From Zootoca vivipara (lineage: Eukaryota): a stretch of 64,000 nucleotides of DNA. A program made the position numbers and the translations under genes. The stretch is from positions 27,342,001 through 27,406,000 of the forward strand of contig NC_083280.1 in assembly GCF_963506605.1 (NCBI RefSeq), given 5' to 3'. Below, one piece after another: positions 2,316 through 57,286 of this stretch. The stretch's first letter is position 1. The number at the start of each line of letters is the position of its first letter. The notes beneath the pieces were generated by a model, which was not told where the DNA came from, did not search any database, and saw only the letters and a program-made list of their open reading frames with translations.

Positions 2316-3125
2316 CGTGTGAAGACCTTTTAACCACACCCCGAAATAAATTCAGACCAGACTCAAATTTTAGGTTTCGTTTTTGGCAGTATTTAGGCCA
2401 CAACTTTATTGATTACAATCAAGTGAGTGGCTGCATAGGCTCTGGTTCGACTAGCTCCCTGCACCCTTGCAGGCAGCGCTGACCCTGGGCACCAACCATA
2501 GGTCAGCCTAGGGTGAACACCTGGGACAGTGGAAAGCAGGAGCCCTGTTAGACCTCCACCCAGATGTCCCCTGGACTCAGGCTCAGGGCACAACCCCTCA
2601 CAGGGAAGACCAACCATGAGTCCATGGATTCCTTCTTAAAGGAATACCCAACGAATAGGGATGGCTAGGCATCCTACCACCCCTATCCACAAGAAACAGA
2701 GCCTATCCACAACCTTACAAGTTGTGACGATTTGCTATGTGGCACGCGAAACCCAAATGGCACCAGCCAATCAGCCAAGTGGGGGAAATTCCTGCCGTGC
2801 CCCTGTCCCAATGACAGATGACACACGACGGCATAGCAAGGTCAAGTGCAAGCCCTAAATATAGGGAGAGGTGGGCAAGTGTTCCAATGCACTGAGCCCA
2901 AAAGGGACACATGCATGGGCTTAAATAGAGGTCCCTCGATCAATTTGACTGGCATCCCATTGGCCCAATTGCACCCAAGATCAAGGGACCTCCAATAGGG
3001 TGTTGTGGCCACCCAAATGTTCCCACCCACAAGACAGGGTCTGGTTGCCAGGTCACATCACAACACGTGCCCTCTTAAGGGAGGACCCGATTTACTTAGT
3101 GGCAGGGAGATAAAATCAGGTCACA
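2316..3125 (-). mobile_element. solo LTR (LTR-A) with structured R region
   Basis: (T>C)GTGTG...TCACA ends; approximate 4-bp TSD tttg/cttg. On the minus strand: CCAAT (~2960), TATTTAAG (~2920-2928), AATAAA (2405-2410). Shares blocks with 15724-16490. Confidence 0.75.
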
Positions 3126-4046: not shown

Positions 4047-4354
4047 CAGGGCCGGCTCGTCGTAGACCCCTGGTGGCGCAGGGCAGCATGGCGCCGGCCG
4101 CCAGGAGGGCGCCGCGAGCTGCGCCCGCCCGCTGGCCGGCCGGCCAGTCCGCTGCGCAGTTGCGCGCAGCGCCCACCTGCCCACCGCGCTGGGAAACGGG
4201 GCGGGAGGGCGCCGGAGAGGTCGCGCTGTGCCTGCCCGCCCGCCCGCCGCGCAGCAGCGCCGCGCCCACCCGCCCACCGCGCCGGGAAACGGGGCGGAAG
4301 GGCGCCAGAGAGATCCGGCGCACCATGGCGACAGGGGCGCTTAAGACGGCGCTG
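4047..4354. mobile_element. GC-rich non-autonomous hAT element (cagggcc family)
   Basis: TIR cagggccg/cggcgctg; perfect 8-bp TSD ccacaccc (4039-4046, 4355-4362); internal imperfect duplication. Confidence 0.9.
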
Positions 4355-5021
4355 CCACACCCCTCTGTCCTCCAACACTTTGCTGCCATTCTGTACACCT
4401 CTCCAGCATCTGAGACAGTCACCTCCATCTGCCTAATGGTAGGTCCAGACCTGCCTGCTTTTCAGAGTACTGGGATAGATGAATAAATGTCTACCTCATG
4501 CCTTAAACAATGGCGGTTTCCCATGTTCACCATTGAATGGTCATTCTTATTGTTTTACAGATATGGAAGCTATATTGAAAGATCTTGTGGCACACACAAG
4601 AGACTGCAGTGCCTCAGTTTCCTTCCTCAGCAGACCATTGTCAAAGTCGGAGAAGAAAATGCAGATTCCTGCACCAAAGAGGCAGATTTATTTCTCTGAT
4701 AATGGGGCAAAGGGTTATATGGGTGATGTGCCTTTCAAAGCTGTTCCTGGACTAAAGCAAATAAAGAAACAGCCAGGGAGATAGACCAGTATGAGCAGGT
4801 GTAGTCACCCAGGCATTAACTTGTGACAACTGTTAAGAGAAGGAAAGGAGGAAATAAAATGGAAAATGGCATTTGTAGCCTTGTTGAGGTCGAGTCTGTG
4901 TAAATATAAATCTTAGCCAGAAGTGCCTAAACAAAAAGAAAGTCATATTTAATACACATGCATGGGGTTGCTAGGTCCAACGTGTTCTCCAGATGTGAAC
5001 CATTTACTGTGACATCAATAA

Positions 5022-6757: not shown

Positions 6758-7649
6758 CATGGACGTAGCCAGGATGAAATTCAGGGGGGGCAAGGGGGGC
6801 AAAGGGGCAGGGCCAAGGGGCGGGGGGAGGGGCCACAGTGGGGCAAGGAAAGCTCCCTTCTCCCTTGCCAGCTTTCCCTCCTCCCGCCCCAGCGATCGCG
6901 GAGGGGATCGGAGCAGCCCGATTTCGGGCTGCTCCGACTCCCTCCTCCCCCTCCGCGATCGGCAGGGGCGAGGGGGCACCAGGAACAGCCCGAAATCGGG
7001 CTGCTCCGACTCCCTCCTCCCCCTCCGCGATCGGCAGGGGCGAGGGGGAGCCAGGATCAGCCCGAAATCGGGCTGCTCCGACTCCCTCCTCCCCCTCCGC
7101 GATCGGCAGGGGCGAGGGGGAGCCAGGATCAGCCCGGAATCGGGCTGCTCCGACTACCTCCTCCCCCTCCGCGATCGGCAGGGGCGAGGGGGAGCCAGGA
7201 TCAGCCCGAAATCGGGCTGCTCCGGCTACCTCCTCCCCCTCCGCGATCGGCAGGGGCGAGGGGGAGCCAGGATCAGCCCGAAATCGGGCTGCTCCGTCTA
7301 CCTCCTCCCCCTCCGCGATCGGCAGGGGCGAGGGGGAGCCAGGATCAGCCCGAAATCGGGCTGCTCCGACTACCTCCTCCCCCTCCGCGATCGGCAGGGG
7401 CGAGGGGGAGCCAGGATCAGCCCGGAATCGGGCTGCTCCGATCCCCTCCTCCCCCTCTGCAATCGCCGGGGCAGGTGGAGGGAAAGCCCCAGAGCTGCGC
7501 AAAGCGGTTGCCTGGCTTTCCCTCCACCCGCCCCACAGCCAGCCAGGGAGAAGGGAGAAGGCACCGGGCGGGCAGCGGGGCAGGCTGGCCAGCGCCCCTG
7601 CTTCTAGGGGGGGCAATTGCCCCCTCCTGCCCCCCTGCCTACGCCCATG
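6758..7649. mobile_element. non-autonomous hAT element containing a 72-bp minisatellite
   Basis: TIR catggacgtag/ctacgcccatg; perfect 8-bp TSD ttccacgg (6750-6757, 7650-7657). Confidence 0.92.
6914..7470. repeat. 72-bp GC-rich tandem repeat, ~7.7 copies
   Basis: cagcccg starts at 6914, 6986, 7058, 7130, 7202, 7274, 7346 and 7418; ORF track shows 24-aa periodicity. Confidence 0.95.
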
Positions 7650-10934: not shown

Positions 10935-13703
10935 TCTTTTTTCTTTCTATTTAGTGATCCCTTGTAGCCGAGTAAGATTGTCTTCCATAAACACGGTTTT
11001 AACAATGAGTCCGTGAGTGGCTGTGGAGGCCAATTCTGGATCCACACATCCTTCCACAGTGGGGACATTAGTTTCCAGGTGGGAGTTGATCACAGTGTGG
11101 ATTTGCCAACCATGCCTTCTTCTTAGCATGTTTCTCCCTTGCATCCTGAGATCGAGTGTCTTCAAAGCCCATGACACCTTTGGTAAAGGCTGTTCTCCAA
11201 CTGGAGTGCTCACAGGCCAGTGTTTCCCAGTTGTCAGTGTTTATACTACATTTTTTTAGATTTGCCTTGAGACAGTCTTTAAACCTCTTGTGTTGACCAC
11301 CAGCATTACGCTTTCCATTTTTAAGTTCGGAATAGAGTAGTTGCTTTGGAAGACGATCATGAGGCATCCACACAACATGACCAGTCCAACGAAGTTGATG
11401 TTGAGGAATCATTGCTTCAACACTGGTATCTTTACTTCTTCCAGTACACTGATATTAGTTCACCTGTCTTCCCAAGTGATGTGTAAACTTTTTCAGAGAC
11501 ATCATTGATGGAATCTTTCGAGGAGTTAGAGATGGTGTTTATAAGTGGTCCATGTTTCACAAGCATATAGTAAAGATGGTAGTACAATAGCTCTGTGAAC
11601 AAGTATTTTGGTTTCCCTGCGAATGTCCCGGTCCACAAACACTCTGCACTTCAATTGGGAGAAAGCCACACTCGCAGAGCTCAGGCGATGCTGGACTTTT
11701 GCATCAATGTTGGCCTTTGTGGAAAGGTAACTGCCTAGGGAGGAGAAGTGATCGACATTTTCCAATGTTACAACACTGAGTTGAATTTGTGGTGCTGCAG
11801 AGGGGTTATTATGTACTTGTTGTTGCAGCACTTTGGTTTTTTGGATGTTGAGTGATAGGCCAAGCTTTTTGTAAGCTTCTGTAAATATATTTAGGATGGT
11901 TTGGAGGTCATCCTCTGAGCGTGCACACACTACGTTGTCATCAGTATACTGAAGCTCTATGATGGAAGTTATGGTAACCTTACTTTTTGCTTTCAGCCTG
12001 CTCTGATTGAATAGCTTTCCATCTGTTCGATATATGATTTCTACTCCGGTGGGGACCTTCCCGTTGACAAAGTGTAGGATCATGGCAATGAAAATAATGA
12101 ATAGAGTTGGGGCAATATCACAACCCTGTTTAACACCTGATCCCACTGTGAATGGGATCTCACTTTGAGAGCCATTGTTATCTGCCATTGTTGCTGTCAT
12201 ATTATCATAGAGGAGCCGAATGATGTTTACAAATTTATCTGGGCAGCCAATTTTCAGAAGGACAGTCCACAGGGCATTACAATTTACAGTGTCAAAAGCC
12301 TTAGTCAGGTCAATAAACAGGGGTTGGTTTTGCTCTCTGCATTTTTCTTGAAGCTGTCGAGTGGTGAAAATCATGTCCACTGTCCCCCTAGAAGGCCGAA
12401 AACCATTTTGGGATTCAGGAAGGGTCACCTCATATATTGTTACGAGACTGTTTAATTTTGCCAGCCGCAGCTAATAGAGAGTTGCCTCAATAGTTTCCAC
12501 AATCAGTTCTGTCACCTTTTTTAAAGAGATTGATAATTTTGTCATCCCTAAAGTCTGCTGGGATTTCTTCTTTTTCCAGATTTTTTTTTGATGAGCTTGT
12601 GAAGTTGTTATGTAAGTTCAATTCCGCTCACTTTGAAGATTTTGGCAGGTCCACTGGCTTTGTTGTTTTTCATTTGGTTAATAGCTGTACACAACTCTCC
12701 CAGATTTGGAGATACTGTAAGCTCATCTCTAACTTGTTTTTGCAGAATTTGTGAGAGGACCTCAGCAGCTACGGGGGAGTTGCAGTTAAGGAGATGTTGG
12801 TAATGTTCTTTCCAGCGCAGTGCAATAGCTTCTTTATCTTTTAGACATGTGATACCATCTGCTGAGCATAGGGGGCATATGCCATGATTTATTGGCCCAT
12901 AGATGGTCTTTGTGGCTTTAAAGAAACTCTGTGCATCATGAGTGTCCGCTAAGTGCTGGATCTCTTGAGGTTTTTTTTTATCCACCAGGTGTTTTTCAGT
13001 TCTCTGGTTCTTCTTTGACCCTCAGCCTTAGCGTTGGCATAGGTTTTTTTCTTAGTGGCACAGTTTCTATCTCTTTGCCAGATCTGAAAGGCCTTCCTTT
13101 TCTTGTCAATCATGCATTCAATCTCACTGTCATTCTCATCAAACCAGTCCTGGTGTTTCTTGGTTTGGTATCCAATAGTTTGTTCACAGGCTGCAATAAT
13201 GGATGTTTTTAGCTTGGTCCAGTGTTCCCCGATGTTATCAGGGAATTCTGAAAGCAGATGATCCTTAAGAGTCATTTGGAAGCAATCCTGCTTAATGGAA
13301 TCTTGAAGGGCTTGAGTGTTCATTTTGCACCTTGGTTTCCTTCCTTGAAGCCTGCATTGAGGTATAATCTTGATAGCCATCATGGAGCGTATTAGTCGGT
13401 GATCTGTCCAGCAGTCATCAGCGCTCGTCATAGCTCTGGTAAGGAGCACATCACGGTGATCTTTAGCACAGACATAGTCTAAGAGGTGCCAGTGGTTTGA
13501 CCGAGGGTGCCTCCATGAAGTTTTAAATTTATTTTTCTGTCGAAAGAGTGTGTTGGTAATAACAAGGTTGTGCGCTGCATGTATTGTCAAAAGTAAGATT
13601 CCGTTCTGGTTGGTGTTGCCAACTCCTTCTTTCCCAATAGTCCCAGGCCACAGATCGAGATCTCACCCAACTCTTGCATTAAAATCACCCAGCAGGATAA
13701 TTG
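10935..13703 (-). mobile_element. RTE-clade LINE, 5'-truncated and disrupted (endonuclease-RT-C-terminus)
   Basis: ILLGDFNARVG and WHLLDY endonuclease motifs; QNGFRPSR, FIDLTKAFDTV, GVKQGC and LQYTDD RT motifs; QLRWTGHV..M...RLPKQLLYSEL. Contains frameshifts and stops. Confidence 0.95.
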
Positions 13704-15723: not shown

Positions 15724-16490
15724 TGTGTGGCAATAGCCCTCCTTCCCATGTAATAAAGACTCATGACACAGTGATTAAGATTTAATTGGGTGGTTAAGGC
15801 CACAACTTTATTAATTATGCATGTTGAGCGGAATTGGCTTAGGCGTTGGAACCTAACAGACTATATCCGACTCCAACCCGTGTGTTGAAGTCTGTGAGAA
15901 GTTAACCACCAGAAAGGAGCCCCGCGACGTAGATCTACTAGAGCTCCTCCTGTGGCCACCGAAGGGCGTGCCTTACGGCCCAGGCAACTCCAGGCTCAGG
16001 ACCAAGCCTCGCCCCCGGAATCCTTTAACGGAATTACTTCTCCAAATTTGGGCAGCTGATGACGTAGCCTGCCCCTCCTCCATCTAATTGTTATGCAAAT
16101 TTCCAACGCCTAACCGCCTAACCTAAGTTGTGACGACATGCTACGAGGTAGGCGAAAAACCCATCATGGCTAGCCCAGTATGGGAAAAATCCTACCCAGC
16201 CCCCTGGCCAACCAGGGCGACCAACTGACGTCCACAGCAGCGTCCCCTTACCTCTTTTTAAGGGGTGGGCGGGCGGGTGAATTGTTCGCTCCGGCGAAGA
16301 GGGACGAAAGAGGGAGCTTTCCCCGCCTGCAGAGTGCTTAAAGTTGGTGGCCCCGCCCCGACCGACCTCATTGGCTGGTCGGGGGGTGACGCAGGCGGGA
16401 ACCTACCATTGCGTAGGGGCTGAGCTTGCAGCCCCTACGCGATGGTACAGTCGGGCAGCCCACAACCCCACCTCCGTCGCAGGCGCGGAA
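15724..16490 (-). mobile_element. solo LTR (LTR-B) with structured R region; right end approximate
   Basis: TGTGTG left end. On the minus strand: CCAAT (~16370), GC box (~16351), TTTAAG (~16340), AATAAA (15807-15812). CpG-rich, suggesting a young insertion; homologous blocks to LTR-A. Confidence 0.78.
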
Positions 16491-17294
16491 GTGGCTTTCT
16501 TATGTTCTTAGTTTTTTCCCCATTTAAATAGAACTGAATATCAGCCAGAGTGCTGCACCTGAAGGAGGGGGAAATGCAACCAGTCTCCATAGCTCTGTCA
16601 AGTATAGAGCAGTGCTGCAATAGTTATGTAGACAACTTTTCCCTGCTTGCCATTTGGATGGTTGCCTTTGGACAGCTCCTACCTTCCTCAGTTGTTACTC
16701 CGTACAACTAAGAAATGCTGTGGTACACCTGCATGAGCCTCCATCTGTCCCTGAGGCAACAAAATGTGTCTCTTCCATATCGGTCTTTACAGCCACAGCA
16801 AGCACTGTAACTCTCCAAGAGTTTGACTTCACCCCTGAAGGCACACTCTCCCATTGTCTCCCGTGACAGACAGATGCAAAAAATAATTTTTGTGAGAGGG
16901 ATAAACCAATTGTGTCAATAACAAGAGGCAACATAATGGTTTCGTTTATTAAAACAATAAAAACAGGCCACCAGGAGTGGAGCTCCAAAGCAGGCAAAAT
17001 AATGAGTTAACTACACAACAAAGAGGTTGATAAAATCAGAAGTACCCAGCCAGCACCAGAGAATTGGATCCACTGGAAGCCAAAGCTCATCAGGAGTAAG
17101 AGTAGACTTACAGAAGACAGAGTTTCTGCACAAAAGCAAAAGATGTGATGCTGAAAGGCTATGTCTCCTTGGGGTGCAACAAGACAAATAATATTTCCCT
17201 CAGCACTGTTTTGAAAAAACTGCACAATATCGGAAGGTAACTAACCTATTCCCATTATATGCACATATCGTATCAGGGCTACAATAGCTACAAT

Positions 17295-29484: not shown

Positions 29485-29632
29485 TTCTGGGATAGCTCAG
29501 TTGGTAGAGCATGAGACTCTTAATCTCAGGGTCATGGGTTCAAGTCCCACATTGGGTAAAATATTCCTGCATTGCAGAGGGTTGGACTAGAAGACTTTCG
29601 TGGTCCGTCCAACTTTACAATTCTATTATTCT
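29485..29632 (+). mobile_element. tRNA-Lys(CTT)-derived SINE with CR1-type 3' tail
   Basis: tagctcagttggtagagcatgagactcttaatctcagggtc.tgggttc matches tRNA-Lys(CTT); followed by gggttggactaga...tccaactttacaattcta, like the CR1 tail. Confidence 0.88.
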
Positions 29633-34954: not shown

Positions 34955-35735
34955 CCAAAAGCAAACAAGATGAATTTTAACAAGGAAAAATGTAAAGTAC
35001 TACACTTGGGCAAAAATAAATGAAAGGCACAAATACAGGATGGGAGACATCTGGCTTGAGAGCAGTACATGTGAAAAGGATCTAGGAGTCTTGGTAGACC
35101 ACAAACTTGACATGAGTCAACAGTGTGATGCAGCAGCTAAAAAAGCCAATGCAATTCTGGGCTGCATCAATAGGAGTATAGCATCTAGATCAAGGGAAGT
35201 AATAGTACCACTGTATTCTGCTCTGGTCAGACCTCACCTAGAGTGCTGTGTCCAGTTCTGGGCACCACAGTTCAAGAAGGATACTGACAAGCTGGAAAGT
35301 GTTCAGAAGAGGGCAACCAAAATGGTCAAAGGCCTGGAAACGATGCCTTATGAGGAACGGCTTAGGGAGCTGGGTATGTTTAGCCTGGAGAAGAGAAGGT
35401 TAAGGGGTGATATGATAGCCATGTTCAAATATATAAAAGGATGTCATATAGAGGGGGGAGAAAGATTGTTTTCTGCTGCTGCAGAGAAGCGGACACGGAG
35501 CAATGGATTCAAGCTACAAGAAAGAAGATACTACCTAAACATTAGGAAGAACTTCCTGACAGTAAGAGCTGTTCGGCAGTGGAATTTGCTCCCAAGGAGT
35601 GTGGTGGAGTCTCCTTCTTTGGAGGTCTTTAAGCAGAGGCTTGACAGGCATATGTCAAGAATGCTTTGATGGTGTTTCCTGATTGGCAGGGGGTTGGACT
35701 GGATGGCCCTTGTGGTCTCTTCCAACTCTATGATT
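34955..35735 (+). mobile_element. young 5'-truncated CR1 LINE (ORF2 C-terminus + short 3'UTR)
   Basis: [50 protein letters not shown]; ends ccaactctatgatt. Confidence 0.96.
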
Positions 35736-42666: not shown

Positions 42667-43270
42667 CATAGAATCATAGAGTTGGAAGAGACCACAAGGG
42701 CCATCCAGTCCAACCCCCTGCCAAGCAGGAAACACCATCAAAGCATTCCTGACATATGGCCGTCAAGCCTCTGCTTAAAGACCTCCAAAGAAGGAGACTC
42801 CACCACACTCCTTGGGAGCAAATTCCACTGCCGAACAGCTCTTACTGTCAGGAAGTTCTTCCTAATGTTTAGGTGGAATCTTCTTTCTTGTAGTTTGAAT
42901 CCATTGCTCTGTGTCCACTTCTCTGAGGCAGCAGAAAACAACCTTTCTCCCTCCTCTATATGACATCCTTTTATATATTTGAACATGGCTATCATATCAC
43001 CCCTTAACCTTCTCTTCTCCAGGCTAAACATACGCAGCTCCCTAAGCTGTTCCTCATAAGGCATCGTTTCCAGGCCTTTGACCATTTTGGTTGCCCTCTT
43101 CTGGACACGTTCCAGCTTGTCAGTATCCTTCTTGAACTGTGGTGCCCAGAACTGGACACAGTACTCCAGGTGAGGTCTGACCAGACCAGAATACAGTGGT
43201 ACTATTACTTCCCTAGATCTAGATGCTATACTCCTATTGATGCAGCCCAGAATTGCATTGGCTTTTTGCA
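42667..43270 (-). mobile_element. young 5'-truncated CR1 LINE, same family as 34955-35735
   Basis: ORF 42738-43280 is nearly identical to 35040-35669; (ctatgatt)n tail. Confidence 0.96.
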
Positions 43271-55988: not shown

Positions 55989-57286
55989 ACCCAAGTGAAG
56001 GAGGAAGGGTGCTAAGTGGAAGAAAGTGTTCAAGAGCAATTATTTCAGTTGCCAAGGCCATCTTTGCATTATACACATCAACCAGATCTTTAACAGAAGA
56101 GTCAATCAAATCTGCTGGAAACCAGCACAATGCAAATCCACCTGGAAGCCACCTAGATTTTTTTAGCCTTCAGGAGTCGCCATCTTAACAGGGGGTGGGG
56201 CTGTTAATCAAAACCTCACCAGGTGGTGAATATGGCAGAAGAAACAGTGAAATCCACCACCTTCAGATCATCTTCTCTCTGCCCAGCCACAAAAACCAAA
56301 TCCAGCCCTGCTATAGGTGTTCACGTGTTGGGCTGATAGCACATTGAAGCAGCCCCATGGTTGTCATAGTGGCCATGAAGTCCTGAGGCACCTTATCTGC
56401 AGCAGTAGTCTGTGGGTCTTCAACACCATGTCTGAGACCATCTCTGTCACCTTACATAGGGGGGACTGCTGGGCACTGGAGTGCATGGGAAACCAACAAC
56501 ATCCCAGTCTGTCCCACTGGCACAATGCAAGATTAGCACTCAAATAGACAGGGAGCCTAGAGAAGAAGATGGACCTCAGCTACTGCTGAATGGAGTATGC
56601 AGTTGGCACAGATTCTTGCCCACTCAGTTCTTAGTTATACATATCCACCTCATTCTTGATTAAATTGTGGATGAGAAATTTTTATTAGAAGCCAACCAGG
56701 CATTCAAAAGCAACATCTGGAAACCCAAGGGCTGACTGATAGGGCAACCACCATAAATACCCCAGGTGGGAAGAGATTCAGAACATGGCATAGACTTGGC
56801 TTATCCTATGCACCTCACTTGGCATACTCTGCGAAAATATGCACTTTGGCTCATGCTTAATGGAGGGACAGCATGCACAAATGGACAAGATGACTCAAAT
56901 ATAAAAGCAGAACTTTATCTGTAATGTTAAAATAGACATCAAAGTCTGTTTCATAAAATCATTTTCATGAGTGCTTTTTATAGAAGGTTTTTACATTACG
57001 AGCAGTGATTCAGCTGCAGGATTCCTTTCTTGATGTAGGTTCAACACTGGTGATATAAAACTACATTTCACTAAAGTCAAATTGCTATTGCTAATACTGT
57101 CCTGAAACTATTTGCAAGGGAGTAAGCCCCGCTGAAATCAGTGGGGCTTACATCTGAGTAGATATGCATAGGGTTGTGCTGCATATGACCATTCCCTCTG
57201 CAGAGATCTAGGAAGGGGTAAAAGTTCCTTTTTCACATTACCTCTGCAGATCTCCAGCATTTCACAGGTGCTAACCAAGGCATGCT

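Follow-up and report, generated by a model that had tools for sequence, protein, structure and literature searches.

A candidate ENE-like RNA module with long-range helices in two diverged LTR-like repeats

Do two LTR-like repeats that look unlike by eye share one RNA fold, and what might such a fold do for a retroelement transcript? The question is raised by a pair of repeats in the 64-kb window (the whole stretch of DNA that was analysed), which is vertebrate-like intergenic DNA with LINE fragments and CR1-, RTE- and SINE-like pieces; its repeat signatures suggest a squamate reptile. The repeats and the promoter-like motifs of the first are as follows:

2318..3125, minus strand: LTR-A, a solitary LTR-like repeat with TG...CA and short inverted ends
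2856..2963, minus strand: putative promoter-like motifs of LTR-A from a motif scan, CCAAT at 2963 and TATA-like at 2927 and 2863
15726..16464, minus strand: LTR-B, a diverged, CpG-rich homologue of LTR-A with TG...CA and short inverted ends

Both repeats display the TG...CA termini, short inverted repeats at the ends, promoter motifs and AAUAAA of solo LTRs, with one minus-strand AAUAAA in each, close to the 3' end. Neither is flanked by a perfect 4-6 bp target-site duplication; the best match for LTR-A is 3 of 4 positions with the left end at 2320, and none occurs at the LTR-B ends. A Pfam scan of 292 translated frames (148 of the 168 from 1-24 kb and all 144 of at least 70 aa beyond) detected no gag/pol or other LTR-element coding domain. 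The lineage may be Gmr1/Gypsy. The two LTRs had been described as aligning poorly, which is so by eye, but they are true homologues over most of their length: the local alignment score of 189 compares with a maximum of 97 in 200 shuffles, and nhmmer relates the two in both directions with E ~1e-13. No third copy was found in the window by nhmmer, motif search or the covariance model described below, and a weak nhmmer match at 56281-56398 (E 0.08) was rejected because it lacked covariance-model support. The sole Rfam match in the window is a partial tRNA-like one at 29493-29550; below threshold, nothing meaningful was returned for LTR-A or LTR-B (1 and 7 weak matches). A hammerhead reading of CUGAUGA on the LTR-B plus strand was discarded, as GAAA does not follow stem II and Rfam reports no hammerhead.

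Directly upstream of the LTR-B 5' TG, positions 16465-16495 form a CpG-rich stretch with a purine tract. This may be remnant internal sequence with a polypurine tract, in which case LTR-B would be a truncated 3' LTR and not a clean solo LTR. Strong self-complementarity marks both strands of the LTR-B U3 (16251-16464; z -5.2 and -6.8), which includes an almost perfect hairpin around 16405-16446. Between the LTRs lies a fragmented RTE-like LINE (11068-13662, minus strand; Pfam RVT_1 at 11529-12470), which is not their internal region. Other elements of the window include a CpG-rich tandem array at 6875-7480 (~72-nt units, 83-93% alike between most offsets, several open frames, no Pfam match), a short CpG-island-like insert at 4050-4360 (internal repeat 4130-4222 versus 4224-4315, no Pfam match) and two CR1-like 3' fragments, 96% identical and inverted 7 kb apart (35140-35735 and 42672-43267). 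The tRNA-like match at 29493-29550 scores 44 bits, is not called by ARAGORN and is probably the head of a tRNA-derived SINE.

The fold in question was proposed for positions 2719-2843 of LTR-A. Its central stem resembles an ENE (element for nuclear expression), in which a U-rich loop flanked by short helices is described as binding the poly(A) tail (PMC7583470; PMC13541005). The predicted features of this domain, with the corresponding loop in LTR-B, are:

2732..2839, minus strand: outer helix of 8 bp (2839-2832 with 2739-2732), closing the domain
2741..2796, minus strand: ENE-like stem with a U-rich internal loop, U3/U3, and one G.G in the lower stem; homologous to the LTR-B loop
2797..2824, minus strand: side hairpin in two parts, 2818-2813 pairing with 2807-2802 as the upper stem; formed when either copy is folded by itself
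16147..16196, minus strand: ENE-like internal loop of LTR-B, U5/U5, flanked by G-C-rich stems and found with a strict descriptor

All of the stem motifs named in the preliminary description are present on the minus strand where it had located them, and all form in the minimum free energy (MFE) fold of the isolated 125-mer. On the 5' side of the loop stem these are GGCAGG (2796-2791), AAUUUCC (2790-2784) and CCCA (2783-2780), and on the 3' side UGGG (2755-2752), UUUCG (2751-2747) and CGUGCC (2746-2741). The outer helix is UUGCUAUG/CAUAGCAA (2839-2832/2739-2732) and the side hairpin CUGUC/GACAG (2817-2813/2807-2803). Taken alone, the domain fold is unremarkable: the 125-mer has a z of -1.79, with 9 of 200 shuffles folding equally well, and the 56-nt core a z of -0.48, with 54 of 200. 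The predictions also depend, in these models, on sequence context. The LTR-A outer helix has a probability of 0.97-0.99 in short contexts and of ~0 with the full U3 or with span limits of 150 or less; it is lost in both LTRs once all of U3 is present. The loop domain is absent from the MFE of the full U3+R fold, where forcing it costs 6.6 of 316 kcal/mol in LTR-A and 2.7 of 291 kcal/mol in LTR-B, and in LTR-B it is lost at span limits of 80, 100 and 150.

Comparison of the two copies was more informative. A covariance model built from LTR-B alone, using that copy's own fold, detects 2719-2843 with a full-model match of 43.6 bits (E ~1e-9), and the next best of its 26 matches scores 11.8 bits. 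The corresponding sequence-only model gives 24.5 bits over model positions 34-120 only, to be read with self scores of 149.8 (covariance) and 133.5 (sequence-only), so that the two bit scales differ somewhat. The proposal that a second LTR family carries the same fold is partly borne out, and the similarity to LTR-B is not due to chance. When the two LTRs were folded independently (108 confident pairs in LTR-B and 125 in LTR-A at p>0.8), 30 pairs coincided at aligned positions. The 110 neutral simulations gave 0.95 on average and never more than 8; this null takes no account of conservation for other reasons. Twenty-eight of the 108 confident LTR-B pairs are broken in LTR-A, with 17 of the breaks falling in the interior, where the alignment is poor. 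Folding of the whole R region gives z -6.9 for LTR-A and -3.3 for LTR-B (40 shuffles), values reached by 0 and 3, respectively, of 32 background windows.

Compensatory changes within the domain had been put forward for selection on the fold, and here the evidence is thin. The lower loop stem has one clean double change between LTR-A and LTR-B (U-A to C-G) and one break (G-C to G.G). All seven compared pairs of the outer helix are kept, with two single-sided changes and no doubles. The side hairpin contributes four double changes or one, depending on gap placement, and its register is ambiguous. With sequence-only alignments, pairing survives in 8 of 17 changed pairs, compared with 6.7-6.9 expected (P 0.33-0.39; five of six parameter sets), and the sixth set retains 6 of 20 with 6.2 expected; retention is thus at chance (8/17 versus 6.8). 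Double changes are in excess (10 versus 3.5 in five sets; 6 versus 3.3, P 0.06, in the sixth), an excess due in part to the misregistered side hairpin.

Better evidence for structure lies outside the stems originally cited. All possible helices in the sequence-only alignment of LTR-A and LTR-B were scanned with four parameter sets, and in three of these exactly two shared helices of at least 7 bp were recovered, designated L1 and L2b. The two are nested and loop out ~310 nt. Their strands, together with those of the adjoining L2a, are:

2719..2728, minus strand: L1 5' strand of LTR-A, in a 12-nt block identical between LTR-A and LTR-B
2697..2710, minus strand: L2a (2710-2707) and L2b (2706-2697) 5' strands of LTR-A
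2427..2444, minus strand: L2b (2444-2435) and L2a (2430-2427) 3' strands of LTR-A
2397..2410, minus strand: AAUAAA (2410-2405) and L1 3' strand (2406-2397) of LTR-A, in a 16-nt identical block
16101..16134, minus strand: LTR-B 5' strands, L1 at 16134-16125, L2a and L2b at 16113-16101
15799..15851, minus strand: LTR-B 3' strands, L2b at 15851-15839 and L1 at 15808-15799, with AAUAAA at 15812-15807

L1 consists of 10 invariant pairs and overlaps the last two A residues of AAUAAA in both LTRs; its 5' strand (2728-2719) is the last ten bases of the domain. The 12-nt and 16-nt blocks that hold its strands are the longest stretches of identity in the alignment and pair over 10 bp, an arrangement with a chance probability of ~0.0015; the two-block pattern has no match in bacterial and archaeal genomes. 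A conserved U.G and the LTR-B wobble pairs are possible on the minus strand only. L1 is predicted in the LTR-B R-only fold (p 0.84) and has a p of 0.01-0.07 in LTR-A, where two local hairpins compete and win by 1.8 kcal/mol; its formation in LTR-A is presumed. L2b has 10 pairs and is predicted in both LTRs (p 0.99 in LTR-A, 0.94 in the R-only fold of LTR-B). Its six differences constitute three pair-keeping double changes, two of which are double transversions, with no singles and no breaks (pattern P 0.003). The helix appeared in none of 150 neutral simulations; with the changed positions held fixed, three doubles appeared in 13-20 of 150, and compensation is not significant once the identity pattern is fixed. 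A double change in L2a is of the CpG-deamination type on both strands and should therefore be discounted as compensation. The spacing from loop to AAUAAA is also kept, at 337 and 341 nt in the two LTRs.

Taken together, these results uphold the suggestion of selection on RNA structure, mostly on evidence other than that first cited: the gain of the covariance model, the 30 shared pairs (at most 8 in any simulation) and the helices L1 and L2b. We conclude that the LTR-A/LTR-B RNA structure is real, probably selected and larger than first described, on covariation evidence that comes from these two copies.

What kind of element might this be? Reported ENEs lie near 3' ends; some are embedded in the LTRs of elements from plants and fungi (PMC13541005), and others belong to retroviruses of stickleback (PMC7583470), so the occurrence of ENEs within LTRs and in retroviruses of that kind is already known from these accounts. 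Over both strands of the 64 kb, a strict ENE descriptor matches LTR-B alone, and it matches none of 100 shuffles; a relaxed one (three U, one mismatch) adds only LTR-A (0.26 matches per shuffled window), the descriptor having been written after both copies had been inspected. The LTR-A loop, at U3/U3, passes only the relaxed form. G-C pairs flank the loop in LTR-B, and in LTR-A a closing G-C is followed by G.G; for the LTR-A upper stem to adjoin the U run, a register with p 0.06 is required. In Evade, the G-C pairs flanking the loop are reported to be essential (PMC12501189). Triplex support is described with four consecutive triples, and natural triplexes are said to have mostly three to six (PMC7583470). 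In both LTRs the loop lies upstream of the predicted poly(A) signal, on the same strand and near the 3' end. By shape and position LTR-B resembles a single-domain ENE, and LTR-A is a marginal candidate. Double-domain and MALAT1-type ENEs were considered and rejected: each copy has one U-rich loop and no second, ARAGORN finds no tRNA gene and Rfam no match of the MALAT1 type in either LTR, and a short A run in LTR-A is not common to LTR-B.

The LTR-A loop has an additional potential partner. Its 3' strand (2757-2747) has an 11-bp complement just past the presumed poly(A) site (2379-2369, minus strand). This pairing has a p of 0.83-0.90 in 5'-LTR-type folds, and read-through transcripts are the only ones in which it would disrupt the loop. 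It was not found in LTR-B, and the duplex energy over the whole region is no better than that of 104 of 1000 shuffles.

The short LTR-A loop had been attributed to an older copy in which the U tracts have decayed. On that account the family has a full U loop and a functional ENE, and LTR-A is a copy that no longer works, its U residues lost by neutral change after insertion. U runs are prone to slippage, and LTR-A is indeed CpG-poor (observed/expected 0.26 versus 0.70 in LTR-B), with 11 of the 24 ungapped LTR-B CpGs reading TG or CA in LTR-A; one G.G mismatch interrupts its lower stem, and its best target-site match carries one mismatch in four. The helices nevertheless are nearly intact. Among 157 predicted LTR-A pairs there are six single mismatches and no A.C, the type expected from post-insertion transitions, although this estimate of decay is biased low because the helices were defined on LTR-A's own fold. 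The R region of LTR-A is more structured than that of LTR-B (z -6.9 versus -3.3), and 6 of its 14 CpGs survive, clustered inside the element (P 0.005). At least three changes in 13 loop nucleotides would have a probability of 0.0003-0.006 at 1-3% divergence and of 0.06 at 7%. Decay of this copy is accordingly unlikely, and the attribution is doubtful. CpGs seem to have been lost along the lineage while selection maintained pairing. The U3/U3 loop is probably a property of the LTR-A family and not damage to the single copy examined.

The comparison establishes that the two LTRs are homologous, share predicted helices, keep their spacing and are complementary between the two blocks that are conserved best. 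On balance, we lean towards the interpretation that 2719-2843 is the LTR-A form of a conserved ENE-like RNA module of LTR retroelements, a stability element to which the tail is brought by long-range pairing. Transcription would proceed on the minus strand to a poly(A) site after AAUAAA. In the transcript of a 3' LTR, L1 and L2 would fold away the ~310 nt between the loop and AAUAAA, which are ~340 nt apart, and place the cleavage site ~10-20 nt beyond L1, hence beside the U-loop domain. The new tail could then dock in the U-rich internal loop through U.A-U triples and resist deadenylation, and the triplex would slow deadenylation of the element RNA. The shorter U3/U3 loop of LTR-A would probably make it a weaker family variant. 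A fuller model, which we offer tentatively, is a self-delivering ENE of an amniote LTR lineage, in which nested helices, one of them on the flank of the poly(A) signal, loop out ~310 nt of R and pass the new tail to the U loop; families would tune the loop (U5/U3), and the 11-bp U5 pairing of LTR-A would turn off the 5' copy.

The structure might instead regulate polyadenylation, with L1 damping the signal in the 5' LTR, in the manner of the HIV-1 polyA hairpin, and the U loop incidental, a possibility that is compatible with the ENE interpretation. Retroviruses with the signal in R are reported to have to suppress it at the 5' LTR (PMC3694450), and in both LTRs L1 covers the last two A residues of AAUAAA and the next 8 nt; in LTR-A the signal lies within a local hairpin of -13.2 kcal/mol. 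The matching LTR-B hairpin is weak, however (-4.1 kcal/mol), and the folds reveal no consistent 5'/3' switch (LTR-B L1 at 0.82 and 0.88, and at 0.31 with a later start). Since control of polyadenylation also leaves the LTR-B U5/U5 loop unexplained, we regard it as quite unlikely to be the function. The domain lies just downstream of both TATA-like motifs and so would also be at the RNA 5' end, where it could serve, like TAR or an export or packaging signal, in RNA handling, with the U-rich loop as a protein site. The highly folded state of the entire R region would suit such a role, but no Rfam family matches LTR-A or LTR-B even below threshold, a transcription start at the later site rules out the outer helix in the 5' copy, and the loop geometry agrees with the published ENE description; a 5'-end element is thus improbable. 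Least probable of all is an absence of structural selection, with the shared blocks as DNA-level or linear signals (the poly(A) signal, or a CRE-like half-site, CGTCA at 2729 and 16135 in the 12-nt block) and the hairpins as inherited leftovers, since the z of -1.79 for the 125-mer alone and the unexceeded fixed-identity nulls are outweighed by the 30 shared pairs (at most 8 in neutral simulations), the L2b doubles without singles, the complementarity of the two best-conserved blocks and the gain of the covariance model over the sequence-only model.

If the ENE-like interpretation is correct, a reptile LTR ENE would extend this defence against decay to amniote retroelements, and the long-range helices would offer a possible account of how the tail is brought to an ENE that is hundreds of nucleotides away from the 3' end. 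Host transcripts that terminate in a solo LTR with such a loop might also be stabilised by it. Each LTR family has many genomic copies, so that covariation and loop length are directly measurable. One ENE is reported to raise transposition in Arabidopsis (PMC12501189). No reptile LTR ENE or long-range tether was found in the open-licence literature, a weak absence because the primary ENE survey falls outside that scope, and an amniote element and a long-range tether are likewise absent from the ENE descriptions in the available parts of the published accounts (PMC12501189; PMC13541005; PMC7583470).

Among known systems, the single-domain ENE of KSHV PAN is similar in that short helices flank a U-rich loop and a poly(A) signal follows downstream, and the five U per side of LTR-B equal the five U.A-U triples described for it (PMC7583470; PMC13541005). 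Unlike in KSHV PAN, there are three U on each side of the loop in LTR-A and a G.G in the lower stem, the loop is ~340 nt from AAUAAA in a larger domain with long-range helices, and the triplex here is a proposed one. Evade/Copia93, the plant and fungal LTR ENEs and the stickleback retroviruses share an LTR retroelement host and a location near the 3' end (PMC12501189; PMC13541005; PMC7583470). The Evade ENE, as described, differs from LTR-A and LTR-B in having four U tracts and in sitting before the LTR (PMC12501189), and most plant ENEs are reported to be double-domain (PMC13541005). The blunt-ended ENEs of MALAT1 and MEN-beta are also vertebrate, with a U-rich loop between G-C stems; unlike these, the LTRs have AAUAAA, no tRNA-like element and no conserved genomic A tract. 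L1 is reminiscent of the HIV-1 polyA hairpin, a structure that overlaps the poly(A) signal (PMC3694450; see also PMC2645353). The Rex response element (RxRE) of HTLV-1 likewise involves a long folded R region, through which 3'-end signals far apart are brought together, in that case AAUAAA in U3 and a distant cleavage region (PMC3694450). Compared by structure, LTR-A and LTR-B differ from the RxRE in having AAUAAA close to the presumed R-U5 border and a predicted bridge from it to a U-rich loop.
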